A stretch of DNA of 41,915 nucleotides from Deltaproteobacteria bacterium (GTDB lineage Bacteria > Myxococcota_A > UBA796 > SXON01), in contig VGRQ01000002.1 of NCBI GenBank assembly GCA_016875315.1, forward strand, positions 1 to 41,915, in the 5' to 3' direction. Within the stretch, counting starts at the first letter, position 1; each line of letters starts with the position of its first letter. Below are positions 9,404 through 41,914 of this stretch, one piece after another. The translations under genes were made by a program, and so were the position numbers. The notes under the pieces were generated by a model, which was not told the origin of the DNA, ran no database searches, and worked only from the letters and a program-made list of their open reading frames with translations.

Positions 9404-12400
9404 TCACCATCCATCGCAGTTGTTGTCTGGGTCGGAAAGCGCGAGTGGCGCGGCTGCCGGGTTGTAGGAGGCATCCGAATCGTCGCAATCGGCACGCGCC
9501 GGCCAGCCATCGCCGTCGGCGTCGCCCCCGCACTCCGTGTCGCTCGGGTCGGCGCACACGAGGAAGCGACGATACGGCGACGCAGACGCCACGTCTCCGA
9601 ACCCGGCCGTGGGCATCCACCCGGGCAGCAGGTTGTCGTTGGCGAGCAGCTGCACCCGGGCTGGAAACGGATCGGCGGCGACGGCCGGATCGAGGGTGAG
9701 CGTGATGTCCACGCTGGCGGCAGAGAGCGCGTTCGGAATCGTGGTGGGGGCGCCCGCCTCGCAGCCTTCGAAGGGCGCGACGCCGGCAGTGCCATAGGCA
9801 CCGCAGTACACGAAGTAGGGAACGTTCGAGAAGCTCGGCGCGTCGATCAAACAGCCATTGGCCGTGCTGAGCTGCACCAACTGTACCTGGTCCACTGTGA
9901 GCAGGGCATCGACAGGTTCACAGGCGCCGGTGTCGAGGCAGGCGGAGGTGTCGGCCTCGGCCCGGGTCACGGCCAGGAGAGGTGTACCCTCACGATTGCC
10001 CCGCACCCACTCGGTGTAGAACGTGGGTTCTGCAAGCCAGGTGCTGATCAACTCGTCCACCGTGGCGGCCGAGCGGTTGTCGGTTCGCTCGAAGAACGCG
10101 ACGAGGTTGGCCCAGAAGCCGGGCTCGCTGCCGCCGTGCGCCCGGTAGGTCCAGTACAGTTGCATGAGGGAATAGGGCCCGAACATGTAGGCAACGCTGT
10201 CGTCGGCGCCGTCTAGCTCCATATCGTCGGCCGAGTTGGCGCAGGTGGCGGTCGCGAGCGCCAGCGCGGCGTCGTAGGGCTCATCCTGTCCCTCCGCACC
10301 ATAGGAGGAGAACACCGGCTGGTCGCCGAGGCGCATCCACGTCAACAACGTGGGCACGCCCTCCACCACCCACCTGGCGCCCGCGTCGTAGGGCGGCTGC
10401 GGCTGCACCCGGAACGCCGTCGCCTGGTGGGCAATCTCGTGTAGCGCGGTGGCCCGCGCATAGTAGAGGGGCACGCCGTCGGCATGCGCGGCCCAGGTCA
10501 CGGTGAGGCCGGGGAATGCCTCCCCGTTGGCCGAGTCGCCGACCGCCGGGTCGGTCCACGCCACCTCCTCGGCGGCGCTGCGCGCCAGCACGAGCACGTT
10601 CACCGGCGAGCCTGGCAGCGCGGCCACGGTGGCCTCCAGCCAGTCGAGGTCGGCCTGCGCCGTGCCGTCGTCGAGGAAGTCGGCGTACGCAGACGCCGGC
10701 CGGTCGATGGCCGGGTCGATCCACACCGGGAGCGAGGACGCCGACGCCGACGTTAGCGTGGTGATCCGCGAGAGCCCCTCGGCAGCGATGAGCAGCGGCA
10801 TGTGCGTGTGCGACTCGCTGCCACGCTCCAGGTTGGCGAGCCCGGAGAAGGTGGTGAGCGCCGTGTCGGGCGCGCCCGGCGCCACGCCCTGCCAACCGGC
10901 GGGGAGCGTGAAGGTGGTGGTGGGCGCGAGGTCGGTCGCCGTGCCGAGGCTGCCGGGGACGACGGGGACTGCGGCGAGGATGACCACGTCGGTGCGCTCG
11001 TCGTCCGGCGTGGCGGTGTCGTCGCCGCCCGTCTGGTAGCGACACAGCGAGGCGTCCTTTCGCTTGTTCTCGACGCAATCGGTGAACCCTCCCTCCTCCA
11101 CCGGCAAGCTCTCCCACTCCACCGCCACCTGCACGTCCATCCCCTCCGTGACGATCCTCGGCAGTCGCGCGTACACGGTCGTGAAGCCGTCGCCTGTGGG
11201 CACCTGGTAGTGCGGCTCGATCGTGTAGCTCGCCCCCGTGTCTGGGTACGTCACCACCACCTGTAGCGTGGCGATCTCGGTGGCACTCTCCGTCGCCACC
11301 AGGAAGATCGCGTCCTCCGCGAAGCACTCGCTCCCCGACGCGCACGCCACGCTGAACGCATAGGATCCGCCCACCCTCCAGGTGCTCCCGTCGTGCCCAA
11401 GGGTGGCGTTCACCGCGTGGGCGGTGAGGGTGCTTCCGGAGAGGGTGCCCTCGGTGCGCTCGAGGTTCTGGTCGCCGGCCAGCGGGTCGGCCGCGTAGGT
11501 GTACACGATATCGTCGGTCCCGCCGCCAAACAGGAACGCGGTGCGCGTGACCGGGTCGTACGCGGCGGCGCCGCCGGACACCCCACCCCACGGCTCGGAG
11601 GGCGCCCAGAGCGTGCGCGCGCCGGCCGAGGTGTCCCAGGCCGAGATGTCGGACAGCTCTCCCCAGGGGTCCTCGCCGCCCCACACCAGCACCTGCTCGT
11701 CGCCGAACCAGGTCGCGGCCGCGTAGATCCGCTGTCCGATGTCGCCCTGCCCGTCCCAGGTGCCCGCGCCCGCATCGTACACGGCCACGTTGTCCCAGCC
11801 GTCAACCAGCCCGGCGGTCGCCGAGCTGTAGGCTCGGTCGCCCTCGATCCAGTCCGAGCTCGCCTGCATGCAGAAGTTGCAGATGTCGCCGGGTGCACCA
11901 TCCGCGAACTCGCAGCGGAGCTGGTGCTGGCGCCCCCTGCCGAGATCCTGGTGCAGCGTGCCGCCGACTTGCACGAGGGAGCCGGTGCCCGAGAACGCGT
12001 GGCTGGAGAAGCTCCACCAGGGGCCGGTGACGGCGCCGGCCGCGCCGCGCCGCCCGTGGGTGCTGTCGGGGGGCACCGCAGTGCCGGCGCTGGCGCTCTC
12101 GGGGTAGCCGTCAAGGCTGGCCGCGCTCCCGTCTACCACGATGAGCGGGTCGGCCGAGGCCGTCGCGAGGTGCTCGTCGGCATCGTCGTCGAGCCCGGCC
12201 ACGACGGACCACGCCGAGCAGTCGCCCTCGCAGCCAGTGGTGCCCCCGGCGATGAGAACGTCTCCGGAGTTGGGGTCGAGACCCAGGGCGAACTCGGCCA
12301 GGCCGGCCACGTTCGCGCTGTCATAGGCCCCCGTCTCCGCGCTGCCGCCGCTCAGGCAGATGGGGTCCTCCGCGCAGGCGGGCTGGTAGTAGTCGTTGTC

Positions 12401-13117
12401 CATTTCAGTGCCATCGCAGCGGAGCGTGGCAAGGCACGGGTTGGCGCTCGCGAAGGTTTTCACGTTGGAGAGGTAGAATGTACCCGAGCTACAGAGGTCG
12501 TCGTCGCAGTCTTCATCGTGCTCGAAGATGCCCTCGCCCAGGCACTCGCCCAGGCGACCGGCCATGGCGGAGGAGTAGGCACAGGGCACCTGCCGGAAGG
12601 AACTGTTGCAGTCGAGCGAGGGCCAGTAGCCCGCGTTGCTCGGCGTCGTGTCGCCGAGGTCGCTGGCGGCGTACTCGATGCTCGGCAGGGTGGTGAGGCT
12701 CGACCAGCCCAGTCCCGACGCCAGGTCGCCCGGCTCGGCCGACCACACGCCGTCACTCGCGGCCGTGGCGGCCGCCTCGTCGAGGTAGCCGGGCGCGAAC
12801 ACGAAGCGCTCGCGGGTGGGGTCCCATGCTAGCCCACCCGAGAAGCTAGCGATCCCCGAGTTGCCGAGCGAGATCCACGGGCAGGCCCCCGTCCCGAGGT
12901 GCGTGAGGTCCAGGAGCCATTCGTCGTCGAGCACCGCGCCGCTGCTCTCGTCCACGCCGCCGTGCAACAGCACGCCCCTCTGCACCCATCGCTCGCTCCC
13001 GCCGCTGCCGAAGTCCACCGGGGACTCGACGAAGAACCACGCCATCGAGTGGTAGCGGCGAGGTTCCGGCACGGCCGACCCGCAGGCCGCCGCGTCGGCG
13101 CTCAGGTTACCGACCAC
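9404..13117 (-). CDS. Giant secreted Kelch-like / HExxH metallopeptidase-like / MopE-repeat protein (main reading frame; its natural N-terminus appears to be the out-of-frame segment 13107-13220)
   Basis: Kelch-like units (RRYHSMAWF...LLHGG...DDEWLLDL; VLVWGG...ISAWD). HExxH motif in ATALHEIAHQA. C-terminal CGGDADGDGWPARADCDDSDASYNPAA...DNNCDGW. As drawn, the frame begins MVGNLSADAAAC and has no signal peptide. Confidence 0.8.
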   Translation of the reverse strand: MVGNLSADAAACGSAVPEPRRYHSMAWFFVESPVDFGSGGSERWVQRGVLLHGGVDESSGAVLDDEWLLDLTHLGTGACPWISLGNSGIASFSGGLAWDPTRERFVFAPGYLDEAAATAASDGVWSAEPGDLASGLGWSSLTTLPSIEYAASDLGDTTPSNAGYWPSLDCNSSFRQVPCAYSSAMAGRLGECLGEGIFEHDEDCDDDLCSSGTFYLSNVKTFASANPCLATLRCDGTEMDNDYYQPACAEDPICLSGGSAETGAYDSANVAGLAEFALGLDPNSGDVLIAGGTTGCEGDCSAWSVVAGLDDDADEHLATASADPLIVVDGSAASLDGYPESASAGTAVPPDSTHGRRGAAGAVTGPWWSFSSHAFSGTGSLVQVGGTLHQDLGRGRQHQLRCEFADGAPGDICNFCMQASSDWIEGDRAYSSATAGLVDGWDNVAVYDAGAGTWDGQGDIGQRIYAAATWFGDEQVLVWGGEDPWGELSDISAWDTSAGARTLWAPSEPWGGVSGGAAAYDPVTRTAFLFGGGTDDIVYTYAADPLAGDQNLERTEGTLSGSTLTAHAVNATLGHDGSTWRVGGSYAFSVACASGSECFAEDAIFLVATESATEIATLQVVVTYPDTGASYTIEPHYQVPTGDGFTTVYARLPRIVTEGMDVQVAVEWESLPVEEGGFTDCVENKRKDASLCRYQTGGDDTATPDDERTDVVILAAVPVVPGSLGTATDLAPTTTFTLPAGWQGVAPGAPDTALTTFSGLANLERGSESHTHMPLLIAAEGLSRITTLTSASASSLPVWIDPAIDRPASAYADFLDDGTAQADLDWLEATVAALPGSPVNVLVLARSAAEEVAWTDPAVGDSANGEAFPGLTVTWAAHADGVPLYYARATALHEIAHQATAFRVQPQPPYDAGARWVVEGVPTLLTWMRLGDQPVFSSYGAEGQDEPYDAALALATATCANSADDMELDGADDSVAYMFGPYSLMQLYWTYRAHGGSEPGFWANLVAFFERTDNRSAATVDELISTWLAEPTFYTEWVRGNREGTPLLAVTRAEADTSACLDTGACEPVDALLTVDQVQLVQLSTANGCLIDAPSFSNVPYFVYCGAYGTAGVAPFEGCEAGAPTTIPNALSAASVDITLTLDPAVAADPFPARVQLLANDNLLPGWMPTAGFGDVASASPYRRFLVCADPSDTECGGDADGDGWPARADCDDSDASYNPAAAPLALSDPDNNCDGW

Positions 13118-13220
13118 GCCTCCCGAGGAACCAGCCGGGGGGGGGGGATGATCCAGTATCTACGCCGTCTTTTCCGTCTACGCCGGTACAAGCATCGAGC
13201 AGCAGCAGCCCGAAGAGCAT
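13107..13220 (-). CDS. Orphan 5' segment encoding a lipoprotein signal peptide (MLFGLLLLDAC...), separated from the giant ORF by a frameshift in a C11 tract
   Basis: SD AGGAGG lies 4 nt upstream of the ATG at 13220. Translation is MLFGLLLLDACTGVDGKDGVDTGSSPPPGWFLGRRGR*. Deleting one C from the tract fuses it to ...PPPAGSSGGVVGNLSADAAAC of the 9404-13117 frame. Confidence 0.7.
   Translation of the reverse strand: MLFGLLLLDACTGVDGKDGVDTGSSPPPGWFLGRRGR
13137..13147. repeat. Homopolymer G11 (C11 on the coding strand)
   Basis: Counted directly: ccagcc + 11 g + atg. It is one of only two runs of 8 nt or longer that I found in the window. Confidence 0.95.
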
Positions 13221-18664: not shown

Positions 18665-19503
18665 TCTGGCGCCTGCCAGATCGGGTCGGCGCAGTTGACG
18701 CGACGCACGATCTCGATGGTGTACTTGGCGGTGCCCACGGTGGGCTGCATGGCGTACTCCACCTGGAGCAGCCGGTGGTCGTAGGTGCCGTCCTCGCCGA
18801 AGTCGGCCTTGGTGTCGATCCGGCAGGTCCGGTAGGTCCACAGGTCGTCCGTGGCGTGGGAGCCCACAGCGAAGGGGATGCTCCAGTCGTAGAAGCCGTC
18901 GGATGCGACGCGGCGATAAACCTCCAACACTCGGGCAACGTCGAAGAACGACTCCCGGCTCGCCGGAACGGTGGCGTACGTCCAGAGCGGATCGATGGTG
19001 CGCGCCCCAGACTCGGCCTCGAAGAGCCGACCGACGTCGTACATCTGCGAGAAGACACTGCAGCGAGGGACACGAAACACGTTCCAGGACACCTCGGTCT
19101 GGCCGAAGATCAGGTCAATCCAACGGGGATCCGATGAATCAGTCGAGTCGAAATACTCCGCGGACCCCGGCCAGATTCTGCTGAACACGGCGAAGGCCTC
19201 TTCGTCGGTGTCGGCACACCACGCGCCGTCGTCCTCCACCCCGCCAGCGGAGAACCACACCATCGGCGGATCATCGAATCGAGTCAACCAGTCGGGAGAC
19301 ATCGGACTCCCCTCAACCCATCCGGTGTAGTAGCGGCTGGCCCACCCTGCGCAGAACGCCTCGTCGCTGATGCTCGCCGCGCACTCCGGCAGGCCGTCGT
19401 CGTCGAACTGCACGCTGGCGTAGGGCAACTCGCTGGCCACCGAGTCTGTTCCCGACGAACCGGCGTGGCAGGCGAGAAGATACACCGTCACCAGGGAGGT
19501 CAC
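18658..19503 (-). CDS. Hypothetical Cys-containing lipoprotein, paralog 1 of a tandem pair
   Basis: The GTG at 19503 overlaps the protease stop (GTGA) and gives (M)TSLVTVYLLAC. Conserved blocks are SSGTDSVASELPYASVQFDDDGLP.CA.SISDEAFCAGWASRYYT and YDWSIPFAVGSHATDDLWTYRTCRIDTKADFGEDGTYDHRLLQVEYAMQPTVGTA.YTIEIVRRVNCADPIWQAPDW. Confidence 0.6.
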   Translation of the reverse strand: MTSLVTVYLLACHAGSSGTDSVASELPYASVQFDDDGLPECAASISDEAFCAGWASRYYTGWVEGSPMSPDWLTRFDDPPMVWFSAGGVEDDGAWCADTDEEAFAVFSRIWPGSAEYFDSTDSSDPRWIDLIFGQTEVSWNVFRVPRCSVFSQMYDVGRLFEAESGARTIDPLWTYATVPASRESFFDVARVLEVYRRVASDGFYDWSIPFAVGSHATDDLWTYRTCRIDTKADFGEDGTYDHRLLQVEYAMQPTVGTAKYTIEIVRRVNCADPIWQAPDW

Positions 19504-21728
19504 GGGCACGCCAGGACCGCCCCCACGGCGTCCAGGTAGCGCCCGCCATCCACTTCTCCGCTGATGTCTTCGGCGGGACTGGAATCCGCCCCACTCAGTA
19601 GCGCATCGGCGAGATCGGCGCCCGTCGCCATTGACGACGGGCACTGTGCGTAGACCAGCCCGGCAACACCACCCACCACGGCAGCTGCCGCAGACGTCGC
19701 GCCAGTCCAGTCACGGATATCCGGATTCCACTTGGCGTACCCATTGGCGGAGGTCCCGGTTCCAACTGATGGCATGCCCGCGAGGAGCGCGTCGGCCCCG
19801 GTGGTAGCGTCGTACGTCCTGTATAGGTAGCCCGGAGCACCGAGTTCCATGCTCCCCGTTCCGTGACTTGATGCGTGCTCGGTGGGTCCTGCATACGCGG
19901 TGTCGTTCCACCGGCCCGTCATCACGCCCGTCGCAGCGGCGTAGTCAATCCCCGTGGCCATCACATTGACGGTGTTCGTGGCCTGATTGTCGGCAGGCAG
20001 GCAGTAGATGCCGATGTCGTCGCAGTCGAGGTCCCAGTTCCCGGCCGCAGTGACGAAGACGATGTCGGGAAAACTCTCGAACTCCGATGTGATCTTATCG
20101 ATCATCGCCTCCTCCTCGGTCTCGCTGACCTCGTACGCACCGGCGTATTCCATCACGATCACGTTCGCGCCGTTCTGATAGAGGTAGTCGATGGCCGCCA
20201 GGTAGGCGGCGAGATCGTACGCCCCGCACTCCTCGTTACCGCTGAGCCGGGCCTCCATGATCCGGGCGCCGCCCATCACACCGGCGCCGTTCCGCGCGTT
20301 GTCCCACTCCATCGCCACCAGGCCCGCCGTCTGCGTGCCGTGGTGAGCCCCATCTGCGGGGTACGACTCGTTGTCCAGATCAGTCGCACCCTCGTCGAGC
20401 TCGCATAGGCCGGTGTCCTTGTTCTCCGTCCAGCGCAGGATCACCCGCGCCCCCAGGATGTCGTCCACAACGCCGTTGCCGTCGTCGTCCGTGCCGTCAG
20501 CAAAGGCTTCCGCCAAATCGCCGCCCTGGTATTGGCCGTCATCAAACGGTACCGACGCCTCGTCATAGAGCGAGTCATCGAGCGTGATTCCCGTCGCCGC
20601 CTGGAGGTCGGCGAGCGCGGCGGCGAGCGCGCTGGCGCTCGACGGGTTGTTGAGGTCGTTGAGCGTGAAGACGCCGTCGCCGTCGAGATCGAACACGTCG
20701 ACGAAGCTGCTCGTGCCGATGTCGGGAAGCTCCCCCTCGTTCACCCACAGGTTGTTCACCAGGTCCGGGTGGTTGTAGTCGATCCCGGTGTCTACGAAGC
20801 CCACGATCACCTCGCGGCTACCCTCCGCCGCGTAGAGGTCCCAGGCGTCCTCCACGCCGATGTCCGCGAGGAAGGCGGCCTCGGCATCGACGTAGTAGGG
20901 GTCGTCGTGGAGTGTGGCATCGTGCCCCGCTGGCCGGAGAAGCGGGTCGAGGGTGGCGAAGGCGACGAGCGGCGAGGCGCGATATTGGACGAGCTTCGCG
21001 AGGATACCGCCCCAGTCCGTACCCGCGAACTCGAGCACGCGCAGGCCGGTCTGCCGCGACATCACCTCCCGCGCGCCCGTGGCCACCTCCCAGCTTTCCA
21101 CCTCCGCGGCCGTGGCCTCTGGGTCGAAGCGGACGAGGAGCCGCCGCTCGTGGAACTCGAAGCGCGCGGGCTCGGCCACGAGCTGCGCGTCGAGTTCGGT
21201 GTCGACCGCCACGACCGAAGCGCCCACGGCGACATCGGAGTCGGGCTCGGTGTCGAGCACGAGTTGCAGACCGGTACGCCCGCCCGGGGTGATGACCGGC
21301 AGGCTCCCCTCGGGCAAGAACCGGACGACGGCCGAGCCGGCGGCCGCCTGCAGCGAGGGCCCGAAGAGGATGGGAAAGCTACCGCCAGGCGCCTCCGCCA
21401 GCCCGGCGCTGACGCCCACTCGCACGTCCTGCACCTGCCCGGGCGGGAGCCAATACTGACCGGCAAAGCGCGGGAACTCCCCGGTGACCGCGTAGAACCA
21501 CACCGGCACTGGCCCGGTGGCGACCGTGAGGTACTCGGGCGGTTGCAGCTGCCCGTTGACCAGGCGCCGGTGCCTCACCTTGATCTCGTCGATGAAGACG
21601 CGCAGCTTGCTCGCGCCCGAGAAGGCGCCCGATGTCGCGTGCTCCAGCTTCAAGTTCAGGACCAGAAGGCCATCGGTGGGCGGATCCGGGACGATCGACG
21701 GCTCCTCCACGATACAGCCGGCGGCCAA
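19500..21728 (-). CDS. Subtilisin-like serine protease (peptidase S8). The lipoprotein signal peptide and the SD+ATG lie upstream (to 21808) but out of frame.
   Basis: Catalytic boxes VGFVDTGIDYNHPDL (Asp), HGTQTAGLVA (His), TAAGN (oxyanion Asn) and GATSAAAAVVGGVAGL (Ser). In-frame upstream codons encode ...HHSRRLWLATGLLAAGC with no start codon. Confidence 0.85.
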   Translation of the reverse strand: MAAGCIVEEPSIVPDPPTDGLLVLNLKLEHATSGAFSGASKLRVFIDEIKVRHRRLVNGQLQPPEYLTVATGPVPVWFYAVTGEFPRFAGQYWLPPGQVQDVRVGVSAGLAEAPGGSFPILFGPSLQAAAGSAVVRFLPEGSLPVITPGGRTGLQLVLDTEPDSDVAVGASVVAVDTELDAQLVAEPARFEFHERRLLVRFDPEATAAEVESWEVATGAREVMSRQTGLRVLEFAGTDWGGILAKLVQYRASPLVAFATLDPLLRPAGHDATLHDDPYYVDAEAAFLADIGVEDAWDLYAAEGSREVIVGFVDTGIDYNHPDLVNNLWVNEGELPDIGTSSFVDVFDLDGDGVFTLNDLNNPSSASALAAALADLQAATGITLDDSLYDEASVPFDDGQYQGGDLAEAFADGTDDDGNGVVDDILGARVILRWTENKDTGLCELDEGATDLDNESYPADGAHHGTQTAGLVAMEWDNARNGAGVMGGARIMEARLSGNEECGAYDLAAYLAAIDYLYQNGANVIVMEYAGAYEVSETEEEAMIDKITSEFESFPDIVFVTAAGNWDLDCDDIGIYCLPADNQATNTVNVMATGIDYAAATGVMTGRWNDTAYAGPTEHASSHGTGSMELGAPGYLYRTYDATTGADALLAGMPSVGTGTSANGYAKWNPDIRDWTGATSAAAAVVGGVAGLVYAQCPSSMATGADLADALLSGADSSPAEDISGEVDGGRYLDAVGAVLACP

Positions 21729-21754: not shown

Positions 21755-21796
21755 GTGAGTGGTGGGTGCCGGGTGCCGGGTGCCGGGTGCCGGGTG
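21755..21796. repeat. Heptanucleotide tandem repeat: (CCGGGTG)x4 perfect, preceded by the degenerate copies GTGAGTG and GTGGGTG (coding-strand unit CACCCGG)
   Basis: Read directly: gtgagtg gtgggtg ccgggtg ccgggtg ccgggtg ccgggtg. Confidence 0.95.
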
Positions 21797-23868: not shown

Positions 23869-24951
23869 TCAGTCCTCGGCCCACTGCCCGCCGGTGAGCC
23901 CCGAGTCCCAGCTCCCGATGCCGAGGTAAGCGAGGTTGAGGTAGCCACGCGAGGCGTCGACCGCCGCCTCCCAGCTGATCTCGGTGTCGATGACACCCTT
24001 GAACAACTTCAGGCGGAACAGGCGCACTTCGAGCCCGGTCGTACCGTGGAGGCGGCCGGAAGCCAGCGCCGTGCGCGTGGGCTCGAAGTAGCTGCCCGCC
24101 CGCACCCGCAGGCGCCGGGGGACGGCCTCCACCTCGAAGCCCAGGTGGGGTGTCACGGTGAGGTTCTTGCCCCGGCGAACGCCCTCGCCCTCGAGGGCGG
24201 TCTCCAGCGCGTAGCCATCCTCCACGGCGCCGTCGATGGTGAGATCGCCGGCCACGCGCACCGGGCGAGGGGGCGCGTGCTCGGCGTCGGTCCAGCCCAC
24301 GCCGAGCGCGAGGTGCCAGGGCATCACCGCCGCCTCGATGGGGTAGGGGCTGCCGCCCTCGGTGGGCACGGCGCGCACCTCGGAGCGGAAGGTGCCGCCG
24401 AGGTTCCAGCCGTCCCACAGTCGCGACGCGAGCACCCCCACCTCGCCGCCCTGCCCGGTCCAGTCGAGCGTGTTGCCGTCGCGCTCCCCGTGGACCGCGA
24501 GCGCGCGAGCGCCGAGCGCCACCGCCACCTTGCCGTCGTCGTAGCTCCCCCCGGCAGCGAGGTGTCCCTCGGTGACGTTGATGAGCGCGCTGCCGAAGCG
24601 GTATTCCAGCCCCGAGTACACCAGTCCCCCGCCGAAGTTGCGCCAGAAGCCGGCCACCCCGAGGTTGGCCATGCCGCCGGTCTTCGGCCCCACCTCGCCC
24701 AGGTTGGCCACGTCTGTCGCTTTCTCCGGGCCGAGCGCCAGCTGAGTGAACGCGAGTGACACTCCCCAGGTGCGCGTCTGCTCGATGCGGCGGTTCACCG
24801 GCGCGGCCGGGTTGAAGAAGGTGCCGTTGGCGCCGCGGGCGAAGCCGAGCCCGGCGCCGCCCATGGCGGTGATCTCGGCCGGGGCGAGCACCACCAGCCG
24901 GGTGGTGTCGATCACCGGCTCGGCGGCGAGGGCGAGGGAGAAGAGCAGCAC
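23869..24951 (-). CDS. Hypothetical outer-membrane beta-barrel-like protein
   Basis: Short signal peptide MLLFSLALAAEP. Alternating hydrophobic/Gly-rich strands. High GC3. No family recognised by eye. Confidence 0.55.
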   Translation of the reverse strand: MLLFSLALAAEPVIDTTRLVVLAPAEITAMGGAGLGFARGANGTFFNPAAPVNRRIEQTRTWGVSLAFTQLALGPEKATDVANLGEVGPKTGGMANLGVAGFWRNFGGGLVYSGLEYRFGSALINVTEGHLAAGGSYDDGKVAVALGARALAVHGERDGNTLDWTGQGGEVGVLASRLWDGWNLGGTFRSEVRAVPTEGGSPYPIEAAVMPWHLALGVGWTDAEHAPPRPVRVAGDLTIDGAVEDGYALETALEGEGVRRGKNLTVTPHLGFEVEAVPRRLRVRAGSYFEPTRTALASGRLHGTTGLEVRLFRLKLFKGVIDTEISWEAAVDASRGYLNLAYLGIGSWDSGLTGGQWAED

Positions 24952-25000
24952 CGGGGGGGAGGTATCCGCGCCGCGGCGAACTGTCGGCTATGCTACGGCC

Positions 25001-25165
25001 ATGCCCATCAGCCCCGAGGAACTCGCCCGACGCCTGGAGGAGGCGGTGCGCGTGCGCCGGAAGCTCCGCGAGGCCACCCGGGCGCTCCAGGCGGCGGGCG
25101 ACGCCATCCGGAAGCAGCGTGAAGCCGAGCCTCGACGACCCGATCCAGCTCGCGATCCTCGCTGA
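25001..25165 (+). CDS. Small charged/coiled-coil ORF (54 aa) overlapping the start of the nucleotidyltransferase-like gene
   Basis: MPISPEELARRLEEAVRVRRKLREATRALQAAGDAIRKQREAEP... Its first ~75 nt include a 45-bp block duplicated exactly at 28706-28750. It may instead be the frameshifted 5' part of the next gene. Confidence 0.3.
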   Translation: MPISPEELARRLEEAVRVRRKLREATRALQAAGDAIRKQREAEPRRPDPARDPR

Positions 25166-25703
25166 GCGGGCCCTGCGCGGCCGGCCGCACGGTCTCTACG
25201 GGGGACTGGCGCTGGCGGTCTACGGCGAGCCCCGGGAAACGCGCGACGCCGACGTGGCCGTGCTTGACTGCGCGCCCGACACCGTCACGCGCGAACTCGG
25301 CGCGCTGGGCATCGAGACGACCGTGAGCTTCAACGGCGTGCCCTTCGGCGGACTGCTGATCAGTCGCGTGGTGGTGTACTCCGAGGCGCGCGAGGGCCTG
25401 AACACCCTGGATCTCGTGCAGCCCGCCGACGCCGAGTACGGGCGGCGAGCACTCGCGCGAACAGTCACGGCCCCGCTCGCGGGCGAGCCCGTGTCGATCG
25501 TCAGCCCCGAGGACTTCGTGATCCTCAAGCTCCTCTCCACGCGCGATCGCGACCTCGAAGATGCGGCCTGCGTACACAATCGCTGTCGCGACATCCTCGA
25601 CCACCGACTCGTCGCCGCCGAGGTGACCCTCCTCGACGCCGCCCTGCCGGGGCTGGGTCTCGCGGCCAAACACGCGCGTTGCGTGGTGCTAGCGGGCAGC
25701 TGA
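25119..25703 (+). CDS. Minimal nucleotidyltransferase-fold protein (MNT/DUF-like)
   Basis: YGGLALAVYGEPRETRDADVAVL fits the hG[GS]-x9-13-Dh[DE]h NTase motif. I chose the GTG start at 25119 because the upstream part of ORF 24990 is Arg/Ser/Pro-rich junk. Confidence 0.5.
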   Translation: MKPSLDDPIQLAILAERALRGRPHGLYGGLALAVYGEPRETRDADVAVLDCAPDTVTRELGALGIETTVSFNGVPFGGLLISRVVVYSEAREGLNTLDLVQPADAEYGRRALARTVTAPLAGEPVSIVSPEDFVILKLLSTRDRDLEDAACVHNRCRDILDHRLVAAEVTLLDAALPGLGLAAKHARCVVLAGS

Positions 25704-25734
25704 CCCGCGCGAGGCCGAGCTGCCGAGGAATCGC

Positions 25735-25803
25735 AAATGTCAAGAAAATGTCAATTGCCCCCCCCCCCGGGGATTGACGGACCGTCGCGACGCGCAGTAC
25801 TCT
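25735..25803 (+). promoter_or_regulatory. AT-rich promoter region: AAATGTCAA x2 (11-bp register), C11 tract, then TTGACG-18 nt-TACTCT
   Basis: aaatgtcaagaaaatgtcaattg + c11 + ggggattgacgg ...(18 nt)... tactct. AAGGAG SD lies 7 nt before the ATG at 25829. TCAAT/ATTGA inverted arms flank the tract. Confidence 0.45.
25758..25768. repeat. Homopolymer C11 immediately upstream of the putative -35 box
   Basis: Counted directly (tcaattg + 11 c + gggg). Confidence 0.95.
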
Positions 25804-25828
25804 CACGTCGCGACCAAGGAGTCTCGTC

Positions 25829-26353
25829 ATGAAGAACTGGACAGGAATGAACGTGTTCCAGTGGGAACACTCTCGGCGGTGGGATCTCGCCCCCGGTGCC
25901 AACGAGTTCGTGCGAGCCGAGGGCGCGCTGATGCTCCCCGGCTTCGTCACCCTCAGCGTGTTCTTCCGCCGCGCCTCGCAGACCGCGAGCACCGTCGAGC
26001 TGGCGCTGTGGACGGCCCCGCTCTACACTCGCCCCCTCGACGAGGACAACTTCACCAACAACCCCGGCCAGTACCTCTTGCCGCTCACCCTCCAGCCGGC
26101 CACCGGCCTGCAGATGACGGGCACCGGCGCGCAGGTGTTCGGCGCCCGCCTCCAGCCGGAGCAGGCGGTGGGGTCGCTGATCTTCTGGCAGCTCAAGAAC
26201 ACCGGAGGCGCCCAGTCGGTGATCGTGGGCGACATCTACGTGGTGCCCAACCACGCGGGGAGCATGATGCTCACCGACGTCCGCCGGACGATCGACGCGG
26301 GCAGCGGGCCGAGTCACGGCAACCTGGCCCGCGCCTCGTTGCGGCAGGGGTAG
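25829..26353 (+). CDS. Hypothetical protein (174 aa), first gene of the cassette
   Basis: Strong SD (AAGGAG) and good GC3. No signal peptide. No family recognised by eye. Confidence 0.6.
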   Translation: MKNWTGMNVFQWEHSRRWDLAPGANEFVRAEGALMLPGFVTLSVFFRRASQTASTVELALWTAPLYTRPLDEDNFTNNPGQYLLPLTLQPATGLQMTGTGAQVFGARLQPEQAVGSLIFWQLKNTGGAQSVIVGDIYVVPNHAGSMMLTDVRRTIDAGSGPSHGNLARASLRQG

Positions 26354-26356
26354 CCG

Positions 26357-26758
26357 GTGGCGTGGGTGGAGCGACCAGCCCGCGACGACCTCGAGCGCGC
26401 GGTCGGGTACGTCCAGTACGTGGCCGCCGAGCAGATGGACGGCCGCGACGCGATCGTGTTCCGGCTGGAAGAGTACGGCGGGCTCGGGCAGATCACCCGC
26501 ACGGGCGAGCGCGCCTACGACTCCACGTCGAGAAAATACGCCATCTACCTCGATGTCGGCACCACGGTCGCCCTCGCCCAGCTCCAGCTCCTGCGCGACG
26601 CGATGGTGCATGGCTACGTGGTGGCCCTGTACTTCCTCGACGACACCGACGACAGCGGGCGCGACGACCCCACGGGCTTCAGGTTCGCCTACGAGGTGAT
26701 GGTGGTGCCCGTCACGCTCGACGAGGAGCTGGTCACGGAGGGGAGTTTTCCGTGGTAG
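26357..26758 (+). CDS. Hypothetical protein (133 aa)
   Basis: GTG start 3 nt after the upstream stop. Coding-like GC3. No family recognised by eye. Confidence 0.5.
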   Translation: MAWVERPARDDLERAVGYVQYVAAEQMDGRDAIVFRLEEYGGLGQITRTGERAYDSTSRKYAIYLDVGTTVALAQLQLLRDAMVHGYVVALYFLDDTDDSGRDDPTGFRFAYEVMVVPVTLDEELVTEGSFPW

Positions 26759-26792
26759 CGCTTGAGGATGCGGCGCGCCGCCGAGCGAACAC

Positions 26793-27737
26793 ATGAGTGT
26801 CACACTTCGGATGCGGCATTGGTACCTTGTGGACGAGCGGGATCAACACCCCTGGGCCGACGCCGGCGTGGGTGACGGGTGGATGCTCGACCCGCTAGCA
26901 CAACTCCCAACACCCGAGGAGAGAATAGCGAAATACCATCAGCAGGCCGCCGACATCTGGTCCGCACAGGGAATCCGGCTCGTCGTGGCTAGCGTGCTTC
27001 CATTCCCGTTCCCCACGCTGGACGTGTCGGCGGAAGATGAACAGTGCCTTGGCAGTTGGCTCTGGCGACGGGACCAGCAGCACATCGATGTCTTCTGGGT
27101 CGGATCTCGAGGCAGCACCGGCACAGGGCTCGGGGTGGCCCTGCTCTCTCGCTACGAGTTCAGCGAGGCCGGCAGCCAGAGAGCTCCTGACGGAACGCTG
27201 ACTGAGATCGCTGCGGGATGGCGCGAGCAGTGTGCGCTCGTGGTGGCCAGTGGCCGAAATCCTGCGCTCGCGGGAAAATACCACGTACCGGCAACAGAAC
27301 TGTGCGGGATTGTGCTGGCTCACGAGCTGGGCCACCTCCTTGGACTACCCCACGTGCTGTCTTCCGGTGAAGGAGACGAGGAGTTTCAAGCGGCGGCCCT
27401 CGACCCGTTCCCGAACGACATCCCAACCGCGGGCACGCGAGCCGAAGACCTGAACGTGATGACGTACTGGTCCGTGGCCCACGCCCCAGATTTGGGCGAG
27501 GGGGAGCCAACGCCCGAGCAGATTAGGGTCACGCGTTCCCAACGATTGCGCTCGCTGGCTACAACTGCACGCCGAACGAACTTCTACTTCCACGTGAGCA
27601 CGCTGAGCGAAATCATCGAAGCGACGAATCGGAGCACCGGACACGCGGAAGTCGTTGCCGAGGTGAGGTCACTCGGGTTCCACAACCCGACTTTTACTCC
27701 CTGCTTCCTCGCGGAGCTCTATGCCGCTGTTGGGTGA
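26793..27737 (+). CDS. Cytoplasmic metzincin-like zinc metalloprotease (HExxHxxGxxH)
   Basis: IVLAHELGHLLGLPH is the extended metzincin zinc-binding motif, and a candidate Met-turn (NVMTYW) lies 38 residues after its last His. There is no signal peptide. GC and GC3 are visibly lower, with rare codons (AGA, ATA, AGG, CTA, TTG). Confidence 0.7.
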   Translation: MSVTLRMRHWYLVDERDQHPWADAGVGDGWMLDPLAQLPTPEERIAKYHQQAADIWSAQGIRLVVASVLPFPFPTLDVSAEDEQCLGSWLWRRDQQHIDVFWVGSRGSTGTGLGVALLSRYEFSEAGSQRAPDGTLTEIAAGWREQCALVVASGRNPALAGKYHVPATELCGIVLAHELGHLLGLPHVLSSGEGDEEFQAAALDPFPNDIPTAGTRAEDLNVMTYWSVAHAPDLGEGEPTPEQIRVTRSQRLRSLATTARRTNFYFHVSTLSEIIEATNRSTGHAEVVAEVRSLGFHNPTFTPCFLAELYAAVG

Positions 27738-28335
27738 GCCAACTACTGAGGACCAGCCTGAGGCAGGCGACCACCTGTCCTTCCGAGTGGGCGCGGGCGC
27801 GGGAGTCTGCCTCCAGCCTGAACGAACCGCGTTTGCCGACGGTTACGATTGGAGTCAGGCGGCCGCTGTGGTCGGCTGCGGCCAGCTCGATCTCGCCATC
27901 GAGGCTGGCCGCTGGGCCGCCGGACTCCACGCCACGGCCGCGCCGTGGAGCCTCTCCGAGCCACTGATGGTAGGCATCGCCGTGGAGCGAGCCCTCGCGT
28001 GGCCTCCCCCCGGGCCCCTTGATGCCGCCGTCACTTTGCGGTACGGGGTGCTGGCGAGCACCTACCAGGCCGGGTCGTGGGCCACCTGGGTCGTTCCCGT
28101 CGACGAGCCGCCCACCGCCGAAATCATCGAGAACTATGCTGAAGTCGGCGGGGAGGTGAGATGGAGGATCGCACCGGGGGTACGCGCCAACGCCGGGTTG
28201 CATCTCGGGCTCGTGGTCACGGCACCCCAGCCCTACGTGACCGCCAGCGACGCGGGCGAGACGGCCTCGCGCTGGGCATTCAGCCCCTCGGGGCGGGGTT
28301 CCGTCGGGCTGCAATGTCTGATTCCCGTTCGTTGA
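27721..28335 (+). CDS. Hypothetical protein (204 aa), distant paralog of 28819-29427
   Basis: It overlaps the metzincin 3' end by 17 nt. GC3 is high in this frame. It shares patches with the downstream protein (SEPLMVGIAVE vs SAGLMVGATHE; GLHLGLVV vs GLGLATVV). Confidence 0.45.
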   Translation: MPLLGEPTTEDQPEAGDHLSFRVGAGAGVCLQPERTAFADGYDWSQAAAVVGCGQLDLAIEAGRWAAGLHATAAPWSLSEPLMVGIAVERALAWPPPGPLDAAVTLRYGVLASTYQAGSWATWVVPVDEPPTAEIIENYAEVGGEVRWRIAPGVRANAGLHLGLVVTAPQPYVTASDAGETASRWAFSPSGRGSVGLQCLIPVR

Positions 28336-28379
28336 TGGTGATGGGCGGGCAAGCTAGCCTTCTCGCCTCCTGCGACTTC

Positions 28380-28470
28380 GCCGAGCGCCACCGCCACCTT
28401 GTCGTCGTGGTAACTCCCCCCGGCGGCGAGGGCGAGGGCAACGATCACGGAGGGGGAGGTATCCGCGCCC
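28380..28470 (-). pseudogene. Remnant of a paralog of the 23869-24951 beta-barrel gene (5' end with an internal deletion)
   Basis: 28380-28431 matches 24511-24562 (4 mismatches in 52). The sequence then jumps to homology with 24921-24975. The junction lies in the microhomology CGGC(A/G)GCGAGG. Confidence 0.6.
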
Positions 28471-28478
28471 CGCCCACG

Positions 28479-28665
28479 TTCGCGGCGGCAAGTCAAGGGG
28501 ACCGCCGGGTCCGGCCGAGCTACCGCCGCGGAACGCGGCTTTCACGGCGGCAAGTCAAGGGGACTGCCGGGTCCGGCCGAGTTGCCGCCGCAGAACGCGG
28601 CTTTCGCGGCGGCAAGTCAACGGCACCGAGAGGTCCGGTCGAGTTGCCGCCGCGCCACGCGGCGC
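28479..28665. repeat. Three tandem copies of a 62-bp unit (GGCGGCAAGTCAAGGGGACCGCCGGGTCCGGCCGAGCTACCGCCGCGGAACGCGGCTTTCAC)
   Basis: ggcggcaagtcaa starts at 28484, 28546 and 28608, an exact 62-bp period. Each unit has internal hairpins (GGCGG...CCGCC; GCCGCG-gaa-CGCGGC). The third copy is the most diverged. Confidence 0.85.
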
Positions 28666-28705: not shown

Positions 28706-28750
28706 CGCCTGGAGGAGGCGGTGCGCGTGCGCCGGAAGCTCCGCGAGGCC
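28706..28750. repeat. 45-bp perfect duplicate of 25031-25075 (5' coding part of the small ORF at 25001)
   Basis: cgcctggaggaggcggtgcgcgtgcgccggaagctccgcgaggcc is identical at both sites. Confidence 0.9.
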
Positions 28751-28818
28751 GAGAGTCGACGACCCTAGGGGCACCTGACCCTCAACTTCCCCCATCCCGG
28801 GGATACCGAGCCACCTCC

Positions 28819-29427
28819 ATGTCGCCCTCGACCGACCTCGCCGCCGAGTCGCCCGACCAGCCACGCGCCGTCGCCCGCCCGGGATGCTCCGTCGAAGCAG
28901 GCGGCTGGTTTCCCACCGAGGGGGTCCTGACCATCGGGGGTGAGAGGTGGCACCGCGCCGCCGACCCCGCCGTCGTGGCCGGCCTGCGCGTGCAACTCGA
29001 CCTCGATCCCTCCGGCCTGTCGATCTCAGCGGCGGCAAGGCGGACGCTGACCCTCGTGGCCGACGCGGACTGGACGGTCGTGGCCGGGCTCGGTGGTGAC
29101 CTCGTGCAGCGCGGGCCCTTCGGCCTCTCGGCGGGACTCATGGTGGGCGCAACCCACGAGACCTGGCAGACGGCGATACCCGTCGCGCTGTTAGTGGAAA
29201 ACCCTGCGCCCACCTACGCGAGTTGGCTGCCGCTGGCCGAAGGCTGGGTCACGCTTGCCTGGCCGCGGCAGTCCGTGTTCCAGGGCGTCGCCCGAGGCGG
29301 CCTCGGCCTGGCCACGGTGGTCGACGTTGGCGACGAGTGGTCCTCGGGGTGGAGCGCCCTGCTGGTACCGGGGGCGGCGTTCACCCTTGGCGTCAACTAC
29401 GTCGCCGGACACCGGCGCCTGCCCTGA
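28819..29427 (+). CDS. Hypothetical protein (202 aa), distant paralog of 27721-28335
   Basis: I use the internal ATG of ORF 28582 because the upstream part runs through the 62-bp repeats and is Arg/Pro junk. The frame has coding-like GC3. Confidence 0.5.
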   Translation: MSPSTDLAAESPDQPRAVARPGCSVEAGGWFPTEGVLTIGGERWHRAADPAVVAGLRVQLDLDPSGLSISAAARRTLTLVADADWTVVAGLGGDLVQRGPFGLSAGLMVGATHETWQTAIPVALLVENPAPTYASWLPLAEGWVTLAWPRQSVFQGVARGGLGLATVVDVGDEWSSGWSALLVPGAAFTLGVNYVAGHRRLP

Positions 29428-29458: not shown

Positions 29459-29485
29459 CTCAACTTCCCCCCGCGCTGACCGATA
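29459..29485 (+). promoter_or_regulatory. Sigma-28-type motif TCAACTTC-N11-ACCGATAC ending 9 nt before the flhA ATG
   Basis: Same 8+11+8 geometry as the sites at 2116 and 31584. No SD lies between it and the ATG at 29495. Confidence 0.45.
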
Positions 29486-29494
29486 CCCCCGGCG

Positions 29495-31603
29495 ATGGCC
29501 TCCGCCTCCGCCGCCCGTCCCGCCGCCGTGCCCTTCGCGGGCATCCGCGCCAACGCGGACGCCCTGCTCGCCCTCGGCGTGTTCGCCGTGGTGGCGATCA
29601 TGATGGTGCCCCTGCCGCCCATCGTGCTCGACCTCATGCTGGCCGGCAGCATCACCCTCTCGCTGCTCGTCTTCCTCGTCGCCATCTACACGCGCCGGCC
29701 CGTCGAGTTCAGCGTGTTCCCCACGGTGTTGCTCGTCACCACCGTGTTTCGCCTCTCGCTCAACGTGGCGAGCACCCGGCTCATTCTCACCCACGGCTCC
29801 GAGGGCACCCACGCCGCCGGGCACGTGATCGAGGCGGTGGGCAACTTCCTCATCGGCGGCAACGCGCTCGTCGGCTTCATCGTCTTCTGCATCCTGGTGA
29901 CCATCAACTTCATGGTGGTGACCAAGGGCGCCGGGCGCGTGGCCGAGGTGGCAGCGCGCTTCACCCTCGACGCGATGCCGGGCAAGCAGATGGCGGTCGA
30001 CGCCGAGCTCAACGCCGGCCTCATCGACGAGAAGACCGCCAAGCGTCGCCGCGCCGAGGTGGCCCGCGAGGCCGACTTCTACGGCGCGATGGACGGTGCC
30101 AGCAAGTTCATCAAGGGCGACGCGATCGCCGCGATCATCATCACCCTCATCAACATCGTGGGTGGCATCATCATCGGCGTGGTGATGGACGACCTCGACG
30201 TCGTCACCGCGCTGTCAAACTACACCATCCTCACCATCGGCGACGGCCTCGCCTCGCAGTTCCCGGCGCTCATCACCTCCGCCGCCGCCGGCATGCTCGT
30301 CACCCGCGTCAACGACGTGGAGGACAACACCCTCGACAACCAGATCGGCCACCAGCTCCTCGGCAACCCGCGGGTGATCGCCATCCTCGCGGTGCTGGCA
30401 AGCTTCTTCGTGTTCGTCCCCGGCTTGCGACTGGTGTTCGCCATCATCGCCGTGGCCCTCGGCGCCCTCGCCTACGCGCTCCGCAACCAGGCGCCGGTGG
30501 CCAGCGCGGCGGCCGACGACGCACCGGCCGCCCCCGCCGAGACCCCCATCGAAGACCTGCTCAAGGTCGACCCGGTGGTGATCGAGCTGGGCCTCGACCT
30601 GCTGTACCTCGGCGACGAGCAGAAGGGGGGCCAGCTGGTGCAGCGCATCCAGCAGCTTCGCCGCCAGGTGGCCAGCGACCTCGGCCTCGTGCTCCCCACC
30701 TTCCGCCTGCGCGACAACGTGCGCCTCGGCGCCGGGCAATACCGCATCCTCTTGCGCGGGGAGACCATCGGGCAGGGAAACGTGGTGTCGCGACAGAACC
30801 TCGCCCTCGACCCCGGGACGGCCACCGCGCCGCTGAAGGGCACCGAGGGCAAGGACCCGGTGTTTGGTATGAAGGGCTACTGGGTGCCCGACGCGATGCG
30901 CCTCAAGGCGCAGTCGCTCGGCTACACCGTGGTCGACGTGCCCACCGTGCTCACGACGCACCTCGACGACCTCGTGAAGCGCCACGCCCACGAGCTGTTC
31001 GGCCGCCAGAACCTCGCCGACGCGCTGGAACGGGTGTCGCAGTCCAACCCCAAGCTCGTCGAGGAGCTCACGCCCGATCCGCTCCCCCGCAGCGCCGTGC
31101 TGCGCGTGTTCCGCAACCTCATCGCCGAGGGCGTGGGCGTGCGCGACACGCAGGGCATCCTCGAGGCGCTCTCCGAGTTCGCCCCCCGGACGCGTGACCC
31201 CGACGTGCTCACCGAGTTCGTCCGCGCCCGCCTCGCCCGCGCCGTGACCGCCCGCTTCACCGGCGACGACGGCGTGCTCCGCTACATCGGCCTCGCCGCC
31301 GACGCGGAAGACGCGGTGAGCCGTGGCCTCCAGGGCAACGACGGCGGCGCGATGTCCTTGGTGCTCGACCCCGACACCACCCGCAAGCTCTTCGCGGCGC
31401 TGCGCCACCAGGTGGAGTCCTACTCGGGCCCCGGGGAGGTGGTGCTGCTCGTGCCGCCGCTGGCGCGCGGGCCGATGCGGCGGCTCATCGAGAAGGCGCT
31501 GCCGCGGGTGCCGGTGATGTCGCCGAGCGAGATCGTCCCCGGCACCGGGCTGGAGCGCGCCGGCGAGTTGTCGCTGCGGCCGCTCAAGTCCGCCGCGTCC
31601 TGA
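29495..31603 (+). CDS. flhA: Flagellar export-gate protein FlhA
   Basis: Full-length match to the FlhA/SctV family (MMVPLPPIVLDLMLAGSITLSLLVFLVAIY, FPTVLLVTTVFRLSLNVASTRLIL, FTLDAMPGKQMAVDAELNAG, FYGAMDGASKFIKGDAIA). The adjacent fliA/flg genes support the flagellar assignment. Confidence 0.95.
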   Translation: MASASAARPAAVPFAGIRANADALLALGVFAVVAIMMVPLPPIVLDLMLAGSITLSLLVFLVAIYTRRPVEFSVFPTVLLVTTVFRLSLNVASTRLILTHGSEGTHAAGHVIEAVGNFLIGGNALVGFIVFCILVTINFMVVTKGAGRVAEVAARFTLDAMPGKQMAVDAELNAGLIDEKTAKRRRAEVAREADFYGAMDGASKFIKGDAIAAIIITLINIVGGIIIGVVMDDLDVVTALSNYTILTIGDGLASQFPALITSAAAGMLVTRVNDVEDNTLDNQIGHQLLGNPRVIAILAVLASFFVFVPGLRLVFAIIAVALGALAYALRNQAPVASAAADDAPAAPAETPIEDLLKVDPVVIELGLDLLYLGDEQKGGQLVQRIQQLRRQVASDLGLVLPTFRLRDNVRLGAGQYRILLRGETIGQGNVVSRQNLALDPGTATAPLKGTEGKDPVFGMKGYWVPDAMRLKAQSLGYTVVDVPTVLTTHLDDLVKRHAHELFGRQNLADALERVSQSNPKLVEELTPDPLPRSAVLRVFRNLIAEGVGVRDTQGILEALSEFAPRTRDPDVLTEFVRARLARAVTARFTGDDGVLRYIGLAADAEDAVSRGLQGNDGGAMSLVLDPDTTRKLFAALRHQVESYSGPGEVVLLVPPLARGPMRRLIEKALPRVPVMSPSEIVPGTGLERAGELSLRPLKSAAS

Positions 31604-31610
31604 CCGATAG
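31584..31610 (+). promoter_or_regulatory. Sigma-28-type motif TCAAGTCC-N11-ACCGATAG upstream of fliA (inside the flhA 3' end)
   Basis: Read directly. GGAGG SD at 31630-31634 and GTG start at 31643 follow. Confidence 0.5.
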
Positions 31611-41676: not shown

Positions 41677-41740
41677 CCCAGGGTGTGCCACAACGCCCGG
41701 AAGTGGCGGCCTAGTCGTTAGATAAAACACTGGGTAAACA

Positions 41741-41914
41741 TCAGTAGTTTGTCGCTAACGACCCCACTACGAACGACGAACCCATGGGTAGGAGTTCCAC
41801 CACGCGCGTGGCTCGCTGCCGCTGAAGGCCGGCGACAAGCTCGCGGAGCACCCAGAACGCGGTGTCGTACCAGCCCATCAGCATGTGCAGGGCGGGCGTG
41901 CGGCTCAGCGCCCA
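41741..41914 (-). CDS. 3' end of an unidentified gene (partial; continues beyond the window)
   Basis: Open to the window edge. Very high GC3 in this frame (WALSRTPALHMLMGWYDTAFWVLRELVAGLQRQ...). No family recognised by eye. Confidence 0.4.
   Translation of the reverse strand, partial: WALSRTPALHMLMGWYDTAFWVLRELVAGLQRQRATRVVELLPMGSSFVVGSLATNY

Follow-up and report, generated by a model that had tools for sequence, protein, structure and literature searches.

A length-variable poly-C tract as a probable promoter switch of a rare mobile gene cassette in a GC-rich deltaproteobacterium

Genes of the cassette and their genomic setting

The DNA analysed here (the window) is a stretch of 41,915 nt from a Deltaproteobacteria bacterium (GTDB lineage Myxococcota_A; assembly GCA_016875315.1, contig VGRQ01000002.1). 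It has a GC content of ~70% and carries flhA, fliA, flgF, flgG and flgH, together with proteins rich in the MopE metal-binding motif, the latter suggesting a Myxococcota-like origin. Rfam and tRNA scans of the window returned nothing. Upstream of flhA lies a cassette of four genes, A to D (25734-28335), whose core of gene A, gene B (1 to 3 paralogous copies in other cassettes) and the metzincin-like protease gene C is common to the related loci of other genomes, which are denoted below by L numbers.

Gene A (25829-26353, plus strand) encodes a 174-residue protein of a very rare family, predicted to form a jelly-roll beta-sandwich, with nine homologues among 5.8 billion proteins and six representatives among 1.84 billion. 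Its AlphaFold2 model (pLDDT 72.6) reaches TM-scores of at most 0.46 to capsid, ephrin-receptor and meprin MAM-like domains and is best described as a predicted generic jelly roll; no relatives of gene A were found on viral contigs. The product of gene B (26357-26758, plus strand; 133 residues) contains the conserved motif YLDxGTxVALAQLQLLRDA, and its single-sequence structure model was set aside as too poor for use (pLDDT 51). Gene C (26793-27737, plus strand) encodes a 314-residue metzincin-like zinc protease with the motif HELGHLLGLPH (HExxHxxGxxH), which shares ~33% identity over ~100 residues with gene C of close relatives; a homology search with gene C returned only itself. This weak metzincin signal is the sole family match of the cassette in Pfam, PHROGs, PADLOC and NCBIfam, where gene A had no match, and a PDB sequence search for cassette function was similarly without a match. 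Gene D (27721-28335, plus strand; 204 residues) is a variable fourth gene, unrelated to the Cys-rich lipoprotein at that position in L002, L003 and L005.

The window cassette is a mosaic (26475-28335). Its ~90% nucleotide identity to L002 and L005 stops within gene B, at ~26474, and third-position GC is about 0.93-0.94 in genes A and B and 0.44-0.84 in genes C and D. In the window, distant or unrelated versions have replaced genes C and D. Separately, codon 4 of gene A in the L005-type strain is TGA (MKN*TG...; L005 8010-8012, also L018-L022); the gene is called there from Met7, giving a product of 168 or 166 residues, and may be inactive or truncated.

The cassette occupies three different flagellar-cluster sites in three genomes whose flanks are about 87-91% identical. 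While the window cassette sits upstream of flhA, that of L005 (7842-10343) lies within the 3'-terminal part of flhA, between the copies of a 12-bp direct repeat (CTTTCGCTGCGC), and terminates on the right in a degraded piece of the 5' part of flhA (75% identity). The cassette of L002 (5855-8204) is found between flgH and an M28 peptidase gene. No recombinase encoded in the cassette was found. Cassette neighbours include toxin-antitoxin or Abi-like genes, with relaxase and Mu-like transposase genes in L012. In the window, the left neighbour is an AbiEii/DUF6036-like nucleotidyltransferase ORF (24990-25703) with weak Pfam matches. Its first ~40 codons are Arg-rich and appear out of frame, and a short ORF from 25002 (MPISPEELARRLEEAVRVRRKLREA...) overlaps it; the region is possibly a small antitoxin-like gene followed by the AbiEii/DUF6036-like nucleotidyltransferase gene.

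Other repeats surround the window cassette. A perfect 45-nt direct repeat (25031-25075 and 28706-28750, 3,675 bp apart) brackets the nucleotidyltransferase gene and the cassette, which suggests duplication or recombination at insertion; the Logan contig L001 ends inside both repeat copies. Degenerate copies (85-92%) of left-flank genes lie around the cassette (24510-24975 versus 28379-28472), and between the cassette and the left-flank remnant are three tandem, internally palindromic units of 62 nt (28479-28664) that are 82-92% identical and REP- or MITE-like.

The predicted promoter of gene A and its conservation

The DNA immediately upstream of gene A (25735-25829) reads AAATGTCAA-ga-AAATGTCAA-ttg-C11-GGGGA-TTGACG-(18 nt)-TACTCT-(12 nt)-AAGGAG-(7 nt)-ATG, and each of these elements was found where the original prediction from the sequence had placed it. 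Two details of that prediction needed correction. Its 18-nt gap holds when counted from the hexamer TTGACG, while after the 8-mer ATTGACGG, as first written, the gap is 17 nt; and the region, which had been called the only AT-rich stretch in the window, actually ranks second by 40-mer (23/40 A+T), behind 41719-41758 (26/40).

The two AAATGTCAA direct repeats (25735-25743 and 25746-25754, plus strand) are 11 bp apart from start to start. This TGTCAA repeat pair forms the left edge of a conserved mobile module of promoter plus cassette: similarity to the window begins at 25734-25738, the first 9-mer, and to the left of that repeat the four orthologous loci compared below have no related sequence. 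The pair is a candidate activator site, for a head-to-tail dimer, or alternatively a candidate UP-like A/T-rich element. The C11 homopolymer (25758-25768, plus strand) is pure, starts 3 nt 3' of the tandem repeats and ends 5 nt 5' of the -35, setting a repeats-to-35 distance of 19 bp in the window. The predicted -35 hexamer TTGACG (25774-25779, plus strand) is followed after 18 nt by the predicted -10 hexamer TACTCT (25798-25803, plus strand) and then by a Shine-Dalgarno sequence, AAGGAG (25816-25821, plus strand), which stands 7 nt before the ATG at 25829 and is kept in L002 and L005. Two CGTCGCGAC 9-mers (25783-25791 and 25806-25814, plus strand), which contain the palindrome GTCGCGAC, bracket the predicted -10 and are a possible operator, e.g. 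for a repressor; both copies are present in L002, and L005 has the downstream copy only.

A scan for E. coli-type promoters and terminators across 25000-26500 called nothing, because TACTCT, a weak -10 by E. coli standards, shares only 3/6 positions with TATAAT. As the -10 is too weak for such a scan, the promoter assignment rests on conservation. Four other promoter readings considered by eye, namely sigma-54 (-24/-12), sigma-28, a leftward promoter using two reversed TTGACA sequences and a -35 inside the repeats, were rejected since none had a plausible second element or gene to serve.

To assess conservation, we retrieved the DNA around gene A homologues and aligned four orthologous promoters, those of the window, L002, L005 and L003, with gene A protein identities to the window (BLAST) of 95%, 93% and 77% for the last three. 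As the original prediction required, the repeats recur in L002, L005 and L003, together with pure poly-C tracts of different length and in the same element order. L002 has TGTCAA twice, C12, TTGACA and TACTTT, with 20 nt from repeats to -35 and 25 nt from -10 to start codon; the latter distance is also 25 nt in the window. L005 has TGTCAA twice, C10, TTGACT and TACACT (17 and 25 nt, respectively), and L003 has TTGTCAC/TTATCAC, C10, TTGACG and TACTCT (20 and 22 nt). The -35/-10 spacer is 18 nt long in 4/4 orthologues and its sequence is divergent, which is the footprint expected of a real -35/-10 pair. A similar repeat pair, TTGTCAC/TTATCTC, is also present in the more distant homologue L017, of 46% GC.

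Because this module accompanies the cassette at each of its three locations, the promoter is autonomous and belongs to the cassette. TGTCAA-N5-TGTCAA has a single exact occurrence in the window, and allowing up to 2 mismatches gives 3 matches against 0.52 expected. The strongest argument against a chance arrangement comes from conservation and length variation across genomes. No regulon of TGTCAA-N5-TGTCAA sites was found beyond the cassette promoters, and no candidate regulator gene linked to the cassette was found in the window.

Length variation of the tract and recurrence of regulatory repeats

Five L005-type assemblies from different samples or assemblers were reached through protein cluster members (GCA_005778355.1, ENA ERZ27257034, GCA_005792815.1, Logan SRR8894379 and GCA_005801925.1). 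Pairwise global alignment over ~3,507 bp revealed no substitution and no other indel, the assemblies differing solely in the tract, which has 10, 10, 11, 11 and 12 C residues. Tract length is thus not invariant: the polymorphism among near-identical genomes that is expected of a contingency locus is present, and between species the tract ranges from 10 to 12. The window and the independent Logan contig L001 both have C11, and both of the L003-type assemblies compared have C10, so that not every comparison reveals variation. The locus also has an uninterrupted, slippable repeat of the length typical of contingency loci (~9 or more G/C; C11 here and C10-C12 in the orthologues), and this repeat lies next to promoter elements that are themselves inferred from conservation.

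Repeats are also present in more distant gene A homologues (about 45-59% identity), but at different regulatory positions. In L013 (TTGACG-C11-a-cctcggg-TACCGT) and L010 (TTGACG-aaaacttc-G10-TAACGT) the tract lies inside a -35/-10 spacer, of 19 and 18 nt respectively. In L011 a G14 run (452-465) is situated within a sigma-factor-like gene (48-578; ...RDLLGGGGEDD...), whose product ends in a sigma-70 region-4-like helix-turn-helix and which immediately precedes a homologous cassette; this G14 would be a translational switch in a candidate cassette regulator. A tandem heptamer, AGCTCTC, is present in 3-4 or more copies ~100 nt upstream of the gene A homologue in L015 (1-30) and L016 (about 66-98), the number in L015 being a lower bound as the contig end cuts the array. 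No long repeat was found at the homologous loci L008, L012 and L014. The -10 elements of distant homologues include TACCGT, TAACGT and TACAAT, and in L014 an A-rich block abuts the -35. Judging from these loci, the gene family has acquired regulatory repeats repeatedly and independently.

Such repeats are otherwise scarce in these genomes. The window contains no homopolymers of 8-10 nt, yet two of 11 nt, and its C or G runs of at least 7 nt number 7 against ~38 expected from base composition. Across all loci, homopolymers of at least 10 nt number 7 in 2,186 nt of upstream regions versus 1 in 100,154 nt elsewhere, that single case being the other C11 of the window. When the four orthologous tracts are treated as one event, repeats have been gained independently at least four times in a set of about nine lineages, at a background rate of roughly 0.002 per 200 nt. 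We estimate that such recurrent gain is far beyond chance, on the order of 1e-9.

The original prediction had further pointed to a second C11 tract and a heptamer repeat as unlikely coincidences. Both are real and occupy expression-critical positions, each in the 5' part of a coding sequence for a predicted lipoprotein. The other C11 (13137-13147, reading as C on the minus strand) comes just after a lipoprotein-like signal peptide, MLFGLLLLDAC, in a coding region that begins at the ATG at 13220 and precedes the ORF at 9404-13117 (minus strand). With C10 or C13 the signal peptide would be joined in frame to this 1237-aa ORF, while at 11 C translation stops after a few codons. The arrangement resembles a translational phase-variation switch caught in its off position, unless the homopolymer length is an error; a homology search with the N-terminus of the 1237-aa ORF found no in-frame alleles. 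The heptamer GGGTGCC (4.7 copies, 21764-21796) falls within the 5' part of the sequence coding for an S8 peptidase lipoprotein (19500-21728, minus strand). The window allele has its ATG in a different frame from the signal peptide RRLWLATGLLAAGC, while L005 (about 1170-1190) has 2.7 copies (GGGTGCT) in frame (MTYFHPAPSTQRSRRGLFATVVFAAGC...), with the lipobox FAAGC intact. The suspicion that this is not coincidence is thus borne out: three repeat switches fall within 42 kb, two of them apparently off, and the two that change reading frame indicate that the lineage uses such switches.

Mode of action, alternatives and relation to known systems

We consider it probable that the C11 tract is a hypermutable repeat in the mobile cassette's own promoter, whose length changes the spacing and phase of an upstream site and hence transcription. 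The core promoter would be of the sigma-70 type (TTGACN, 18 nt, TACnnT), with the poly-C tract filling the gap between this core and the TGTCA(A/C) repeat pair, whose halves lie one helical turn apart. Slipped-strand mispairing during replication would add or remove C residues, and each such step would shift the upstream site by 1 bp and rotate it by ~34 degrees relative to RNA polymerase, changing the contact between polymerase and its upstream-site partner accordingly. This partner may be a head-to-tail dimeric activator, for example a response regulator of the OmpR/PhoB type, or alternatively the alpha subunits of polymerase on a UP-like A/T-rich element, as in the sabA system discussed below. 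The head-to-tail period of 10-11 bp and the preservation of the motif across very different hosts favour an OmpR/PhoB-type factor. Because a C-tract, unlike one of A or T, is not expected to bend DNA, its length would act through spacing and phase alone. The outcome would be a switch or a rheostat, with the cassette transcribed at different levels across the cells of a population. For the kind of element and its hypermutability, the original proposal of promoter-spacing phase variation is thus supported, by the conservation of the orthologues and by length variation, and from these we infer an effect of tract length on cassette transcription. Two outcomes that the proposal had named as refuting it, absence of the repeats from orthologous promoters and an invariant tract, did not occur.

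A tract that is hypermutable but neutral would also vary in length, as a tolerated spacer in a constitutive promoter that simply drifts. Consistent with such drift, the 18-nt core spacing of the window group is untouched by tract length, and the lengths are confined to the narrow range of 10-12. An unselected pure homopolymer should nonetheless decay, whereas this one is uninterrupted in four lineages with flanks that differ by 10-25%, in genomes whose 100 kb of sequence is otherwise almost devoid of homopolymers of at least 10 nt. Furthermore, the family independently gained repeats in a regulator gene and at a place where length cannot be indifferent, the -35/-10 spacer. We therefore regard neutrality as unlikely.

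A reading of the TGTCAA repeats and tract as the terminal recognition sequence of the cassette for recombination or transposition, with no regulatory role and a promoter that merely adjoins them, is less probable still. The exact start of cross-genome similarity at the first repeat, the three different cassette sites in closely related genomes and the 12-bp direct repeat flanking the L005 insertion would all fit a terminal sequence. At the right ends, however, which are heterogeneous and carry remnants of earlier flanks, no matching repeat was seen; the cassette is without a recombinase; the L005 insertion begins 66 bp left of the repeats; and in L013 and L010 the tract is inside the promoter spacer.

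That the homopolymer or its length is a sequencing or assembly artefact, which the original prediction had asked to be excluded, we hold to be very improbable. Long G/C homopolymers are error-prone, and one L003-type assembly, L023, has 3.5x coverage and scattered errors elsewhere. The length differences between assemblies could partly reflect consensus-calling noise from short reads at a long homopolymer, but such noise is insufficient as an explanation because the tract is conserved across species and is the sole variable site in 3.5 kb among five assemblies. At least four species-level lineages, which come from unrelated studies and were put together by unrelated assemblers, also have the tract at one position, and random error would neither single out one regulatory site nor reappear in distant homologues. 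An artefact is accordingly excluded as regards the existence of the tract, while its exact length in any single assembly remains uncertain. Conservation across genomes, length variation in identical assemblies and the repeats of distant homologues together identify the tract, as far as comparison of sequences can, as a genuine hypermutable repeat. Equally improbable is a hairpin or cruciform across the tract, as had also been suggested, serving as a terminator of the upstream gene or a structural operator: the GTCAAT/ATTGAC and CCCC/GGGG arms (TCAAT/ATTGA in the original reading) exist, and inverted TGTCAA/TTGACA is also seen in L002 and L005, but this inverted relation is trivial, since the reverse complement of TGTCAA is simply the -35 consensus, the folding energy is no better than that of shuffles (z = -1.24; 24/200 fold equally well), no T-run follows the arms, no terminator was called and the upstream gene differs in each genome. 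Folding of the 5' leader was likewise no better than that of shuffles.

Variation of a promoter-proximal repeat has precedents with which the proposed spacing switch can be compared. In Helicobacter pylori sabA, a T-tract next to the -35 varies in length between isolates and acts as a rheostat, slippage changing the alignment of the core with upstream elements and giving a multiphasic output through contacts of the RNA polymerase alpha subunit, without a trans-acting factor (PMC4081817). The layout found here is of the same type, with a homopolymer directly upstream of the -35 that separates the core from upstream A/T-rich elements, the 9-mers being the A/T-rich part (23/40 A+T in 70% GC DNA). 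The two differ in that the sabA tract is T (or A), stands in an AT-rich genome and affects curvature, whereas ours is C in 70% GC DNA, and in that the upstream element here is an exact 9-mer pair, more like a transcription-factor site than A-boxes. In Neisseria meningitidis nadA, the copy number of a TAAA repeat alters the spacing between distal sites and the core, producing low, medium and high states (PMC2791445). Here too a repeat upstream of the -35 sets the spacing of distal sites to the core promoter, although the nadA repeat is a tetranucleotide that contributes to an IHF site and has NadR operators on its flanks, while ours is a homopolymer.

The analogy originally drawn was with the Bordetella fim promoters, where a C-stretch at fim2, fim3 and fimX of B. 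pertussis and B. bronchiseptica varies in length from strain to strain, in correlation with transcript level, and the working model has a response regulator in control (PMC1891110). What the systems share is an accessory gene of a GC-rich bacterium whose promoter contains a variable poly-C tract of about 10-15 nt. It does not extend to position: the tract found here is upstream of TTGACG, with -35 and -10 fixed at 18 nt, so it does not correspond to a fim-type C-stretch. That stretch reportedly lies between the BvgA site and the -10 of promoters with a 'fim box' and no good -35, whereas our locus has a near-consensus -35 downstream of the tract and no fim box. The fim analogy is therefore loose, because the tract is upstream of a good -35 and not between an activator site and the -10, and sabA and nadA are closer in layout. 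L013 and L010, with the tract inside the spacer, are closer to fim and to Neisseria opc and porA than the window group is.

The repeat pair also invites comparison with a Pho box, which has the form CTGTCAT-N4-CTGTCAT. Both consist of two head-to-tail half-sites that contain TGTCA, with the 10-11 bp period of OmpR/PhoB-type sites, a geometry used by dimers of winged-helix response regulators. Classical Pho boxes overlap or replace the -35, however, while the present site is centred ~30 bp upstream of a good -35, and we treat the resemblance as a lead only.

Repeat-driven phase variation is a textbook strategy of host-adapted pathogens (Neisseria, Haemophilus, Helicobacter, Campylobacter, Bordetella), and a literature search gave no instance of it from myxobacteria or comparable GC-rich environmental lineages. 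The kind of switch is already known; new are its host and its cargo, and also the fact that a single rare gene family has recruited repeats convergently. In its widest form the interpretation is tentative, and we put it forward as a possibility on which we would place rather less than even weight: that a rare mobile module has repeatedly and independently recruited switches (upstream of the -35, in the spacer and in a sigma-like gene), in an uncultured lineage of flagellated, GC-rich environmental hosts, probably Myxococcota-like, with at least three of them in 42 kb. If this is true, contingency-locus bet-hedging, described almost only in host-adapted pathogens, would be used systematically by free-living bacteria. 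A single variable site in an otherwise invariant 3.5 kb, together with the convergent repeats, marks the cassette as under fluctuating selection. This selection would be strong if the interpretation holds, as for an envelope or secreted factor that phages or prey target, or for a costly defence module, and the neighbouring toxin-antitoxin, Abi-like and mobile-element genes fit a defence-island setting. The cassette is thus a good target for functional work. More generally, promoter switches can be found and validated from public metagenome assemblies without cultures.

A final observation concerns the other promoters of the window. The sequence CTGACCGATA lies just upstream of three start codons, including those of flhA and fliA (2132-2141, 29476-29485 and 31600-31609), and CCCTCAACTTCC precedes CTGACCGATA or a variant of it at flhA and at the ORF starting near 28819 (28778-28810). 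Sigma-28 (FliA) promoters have the form TAAA-N15-GCCGATAA, which the CCCTCAACTTCC/CTGACCGATA sites resemble. The same motif also follows the cassette in L002 and L005.
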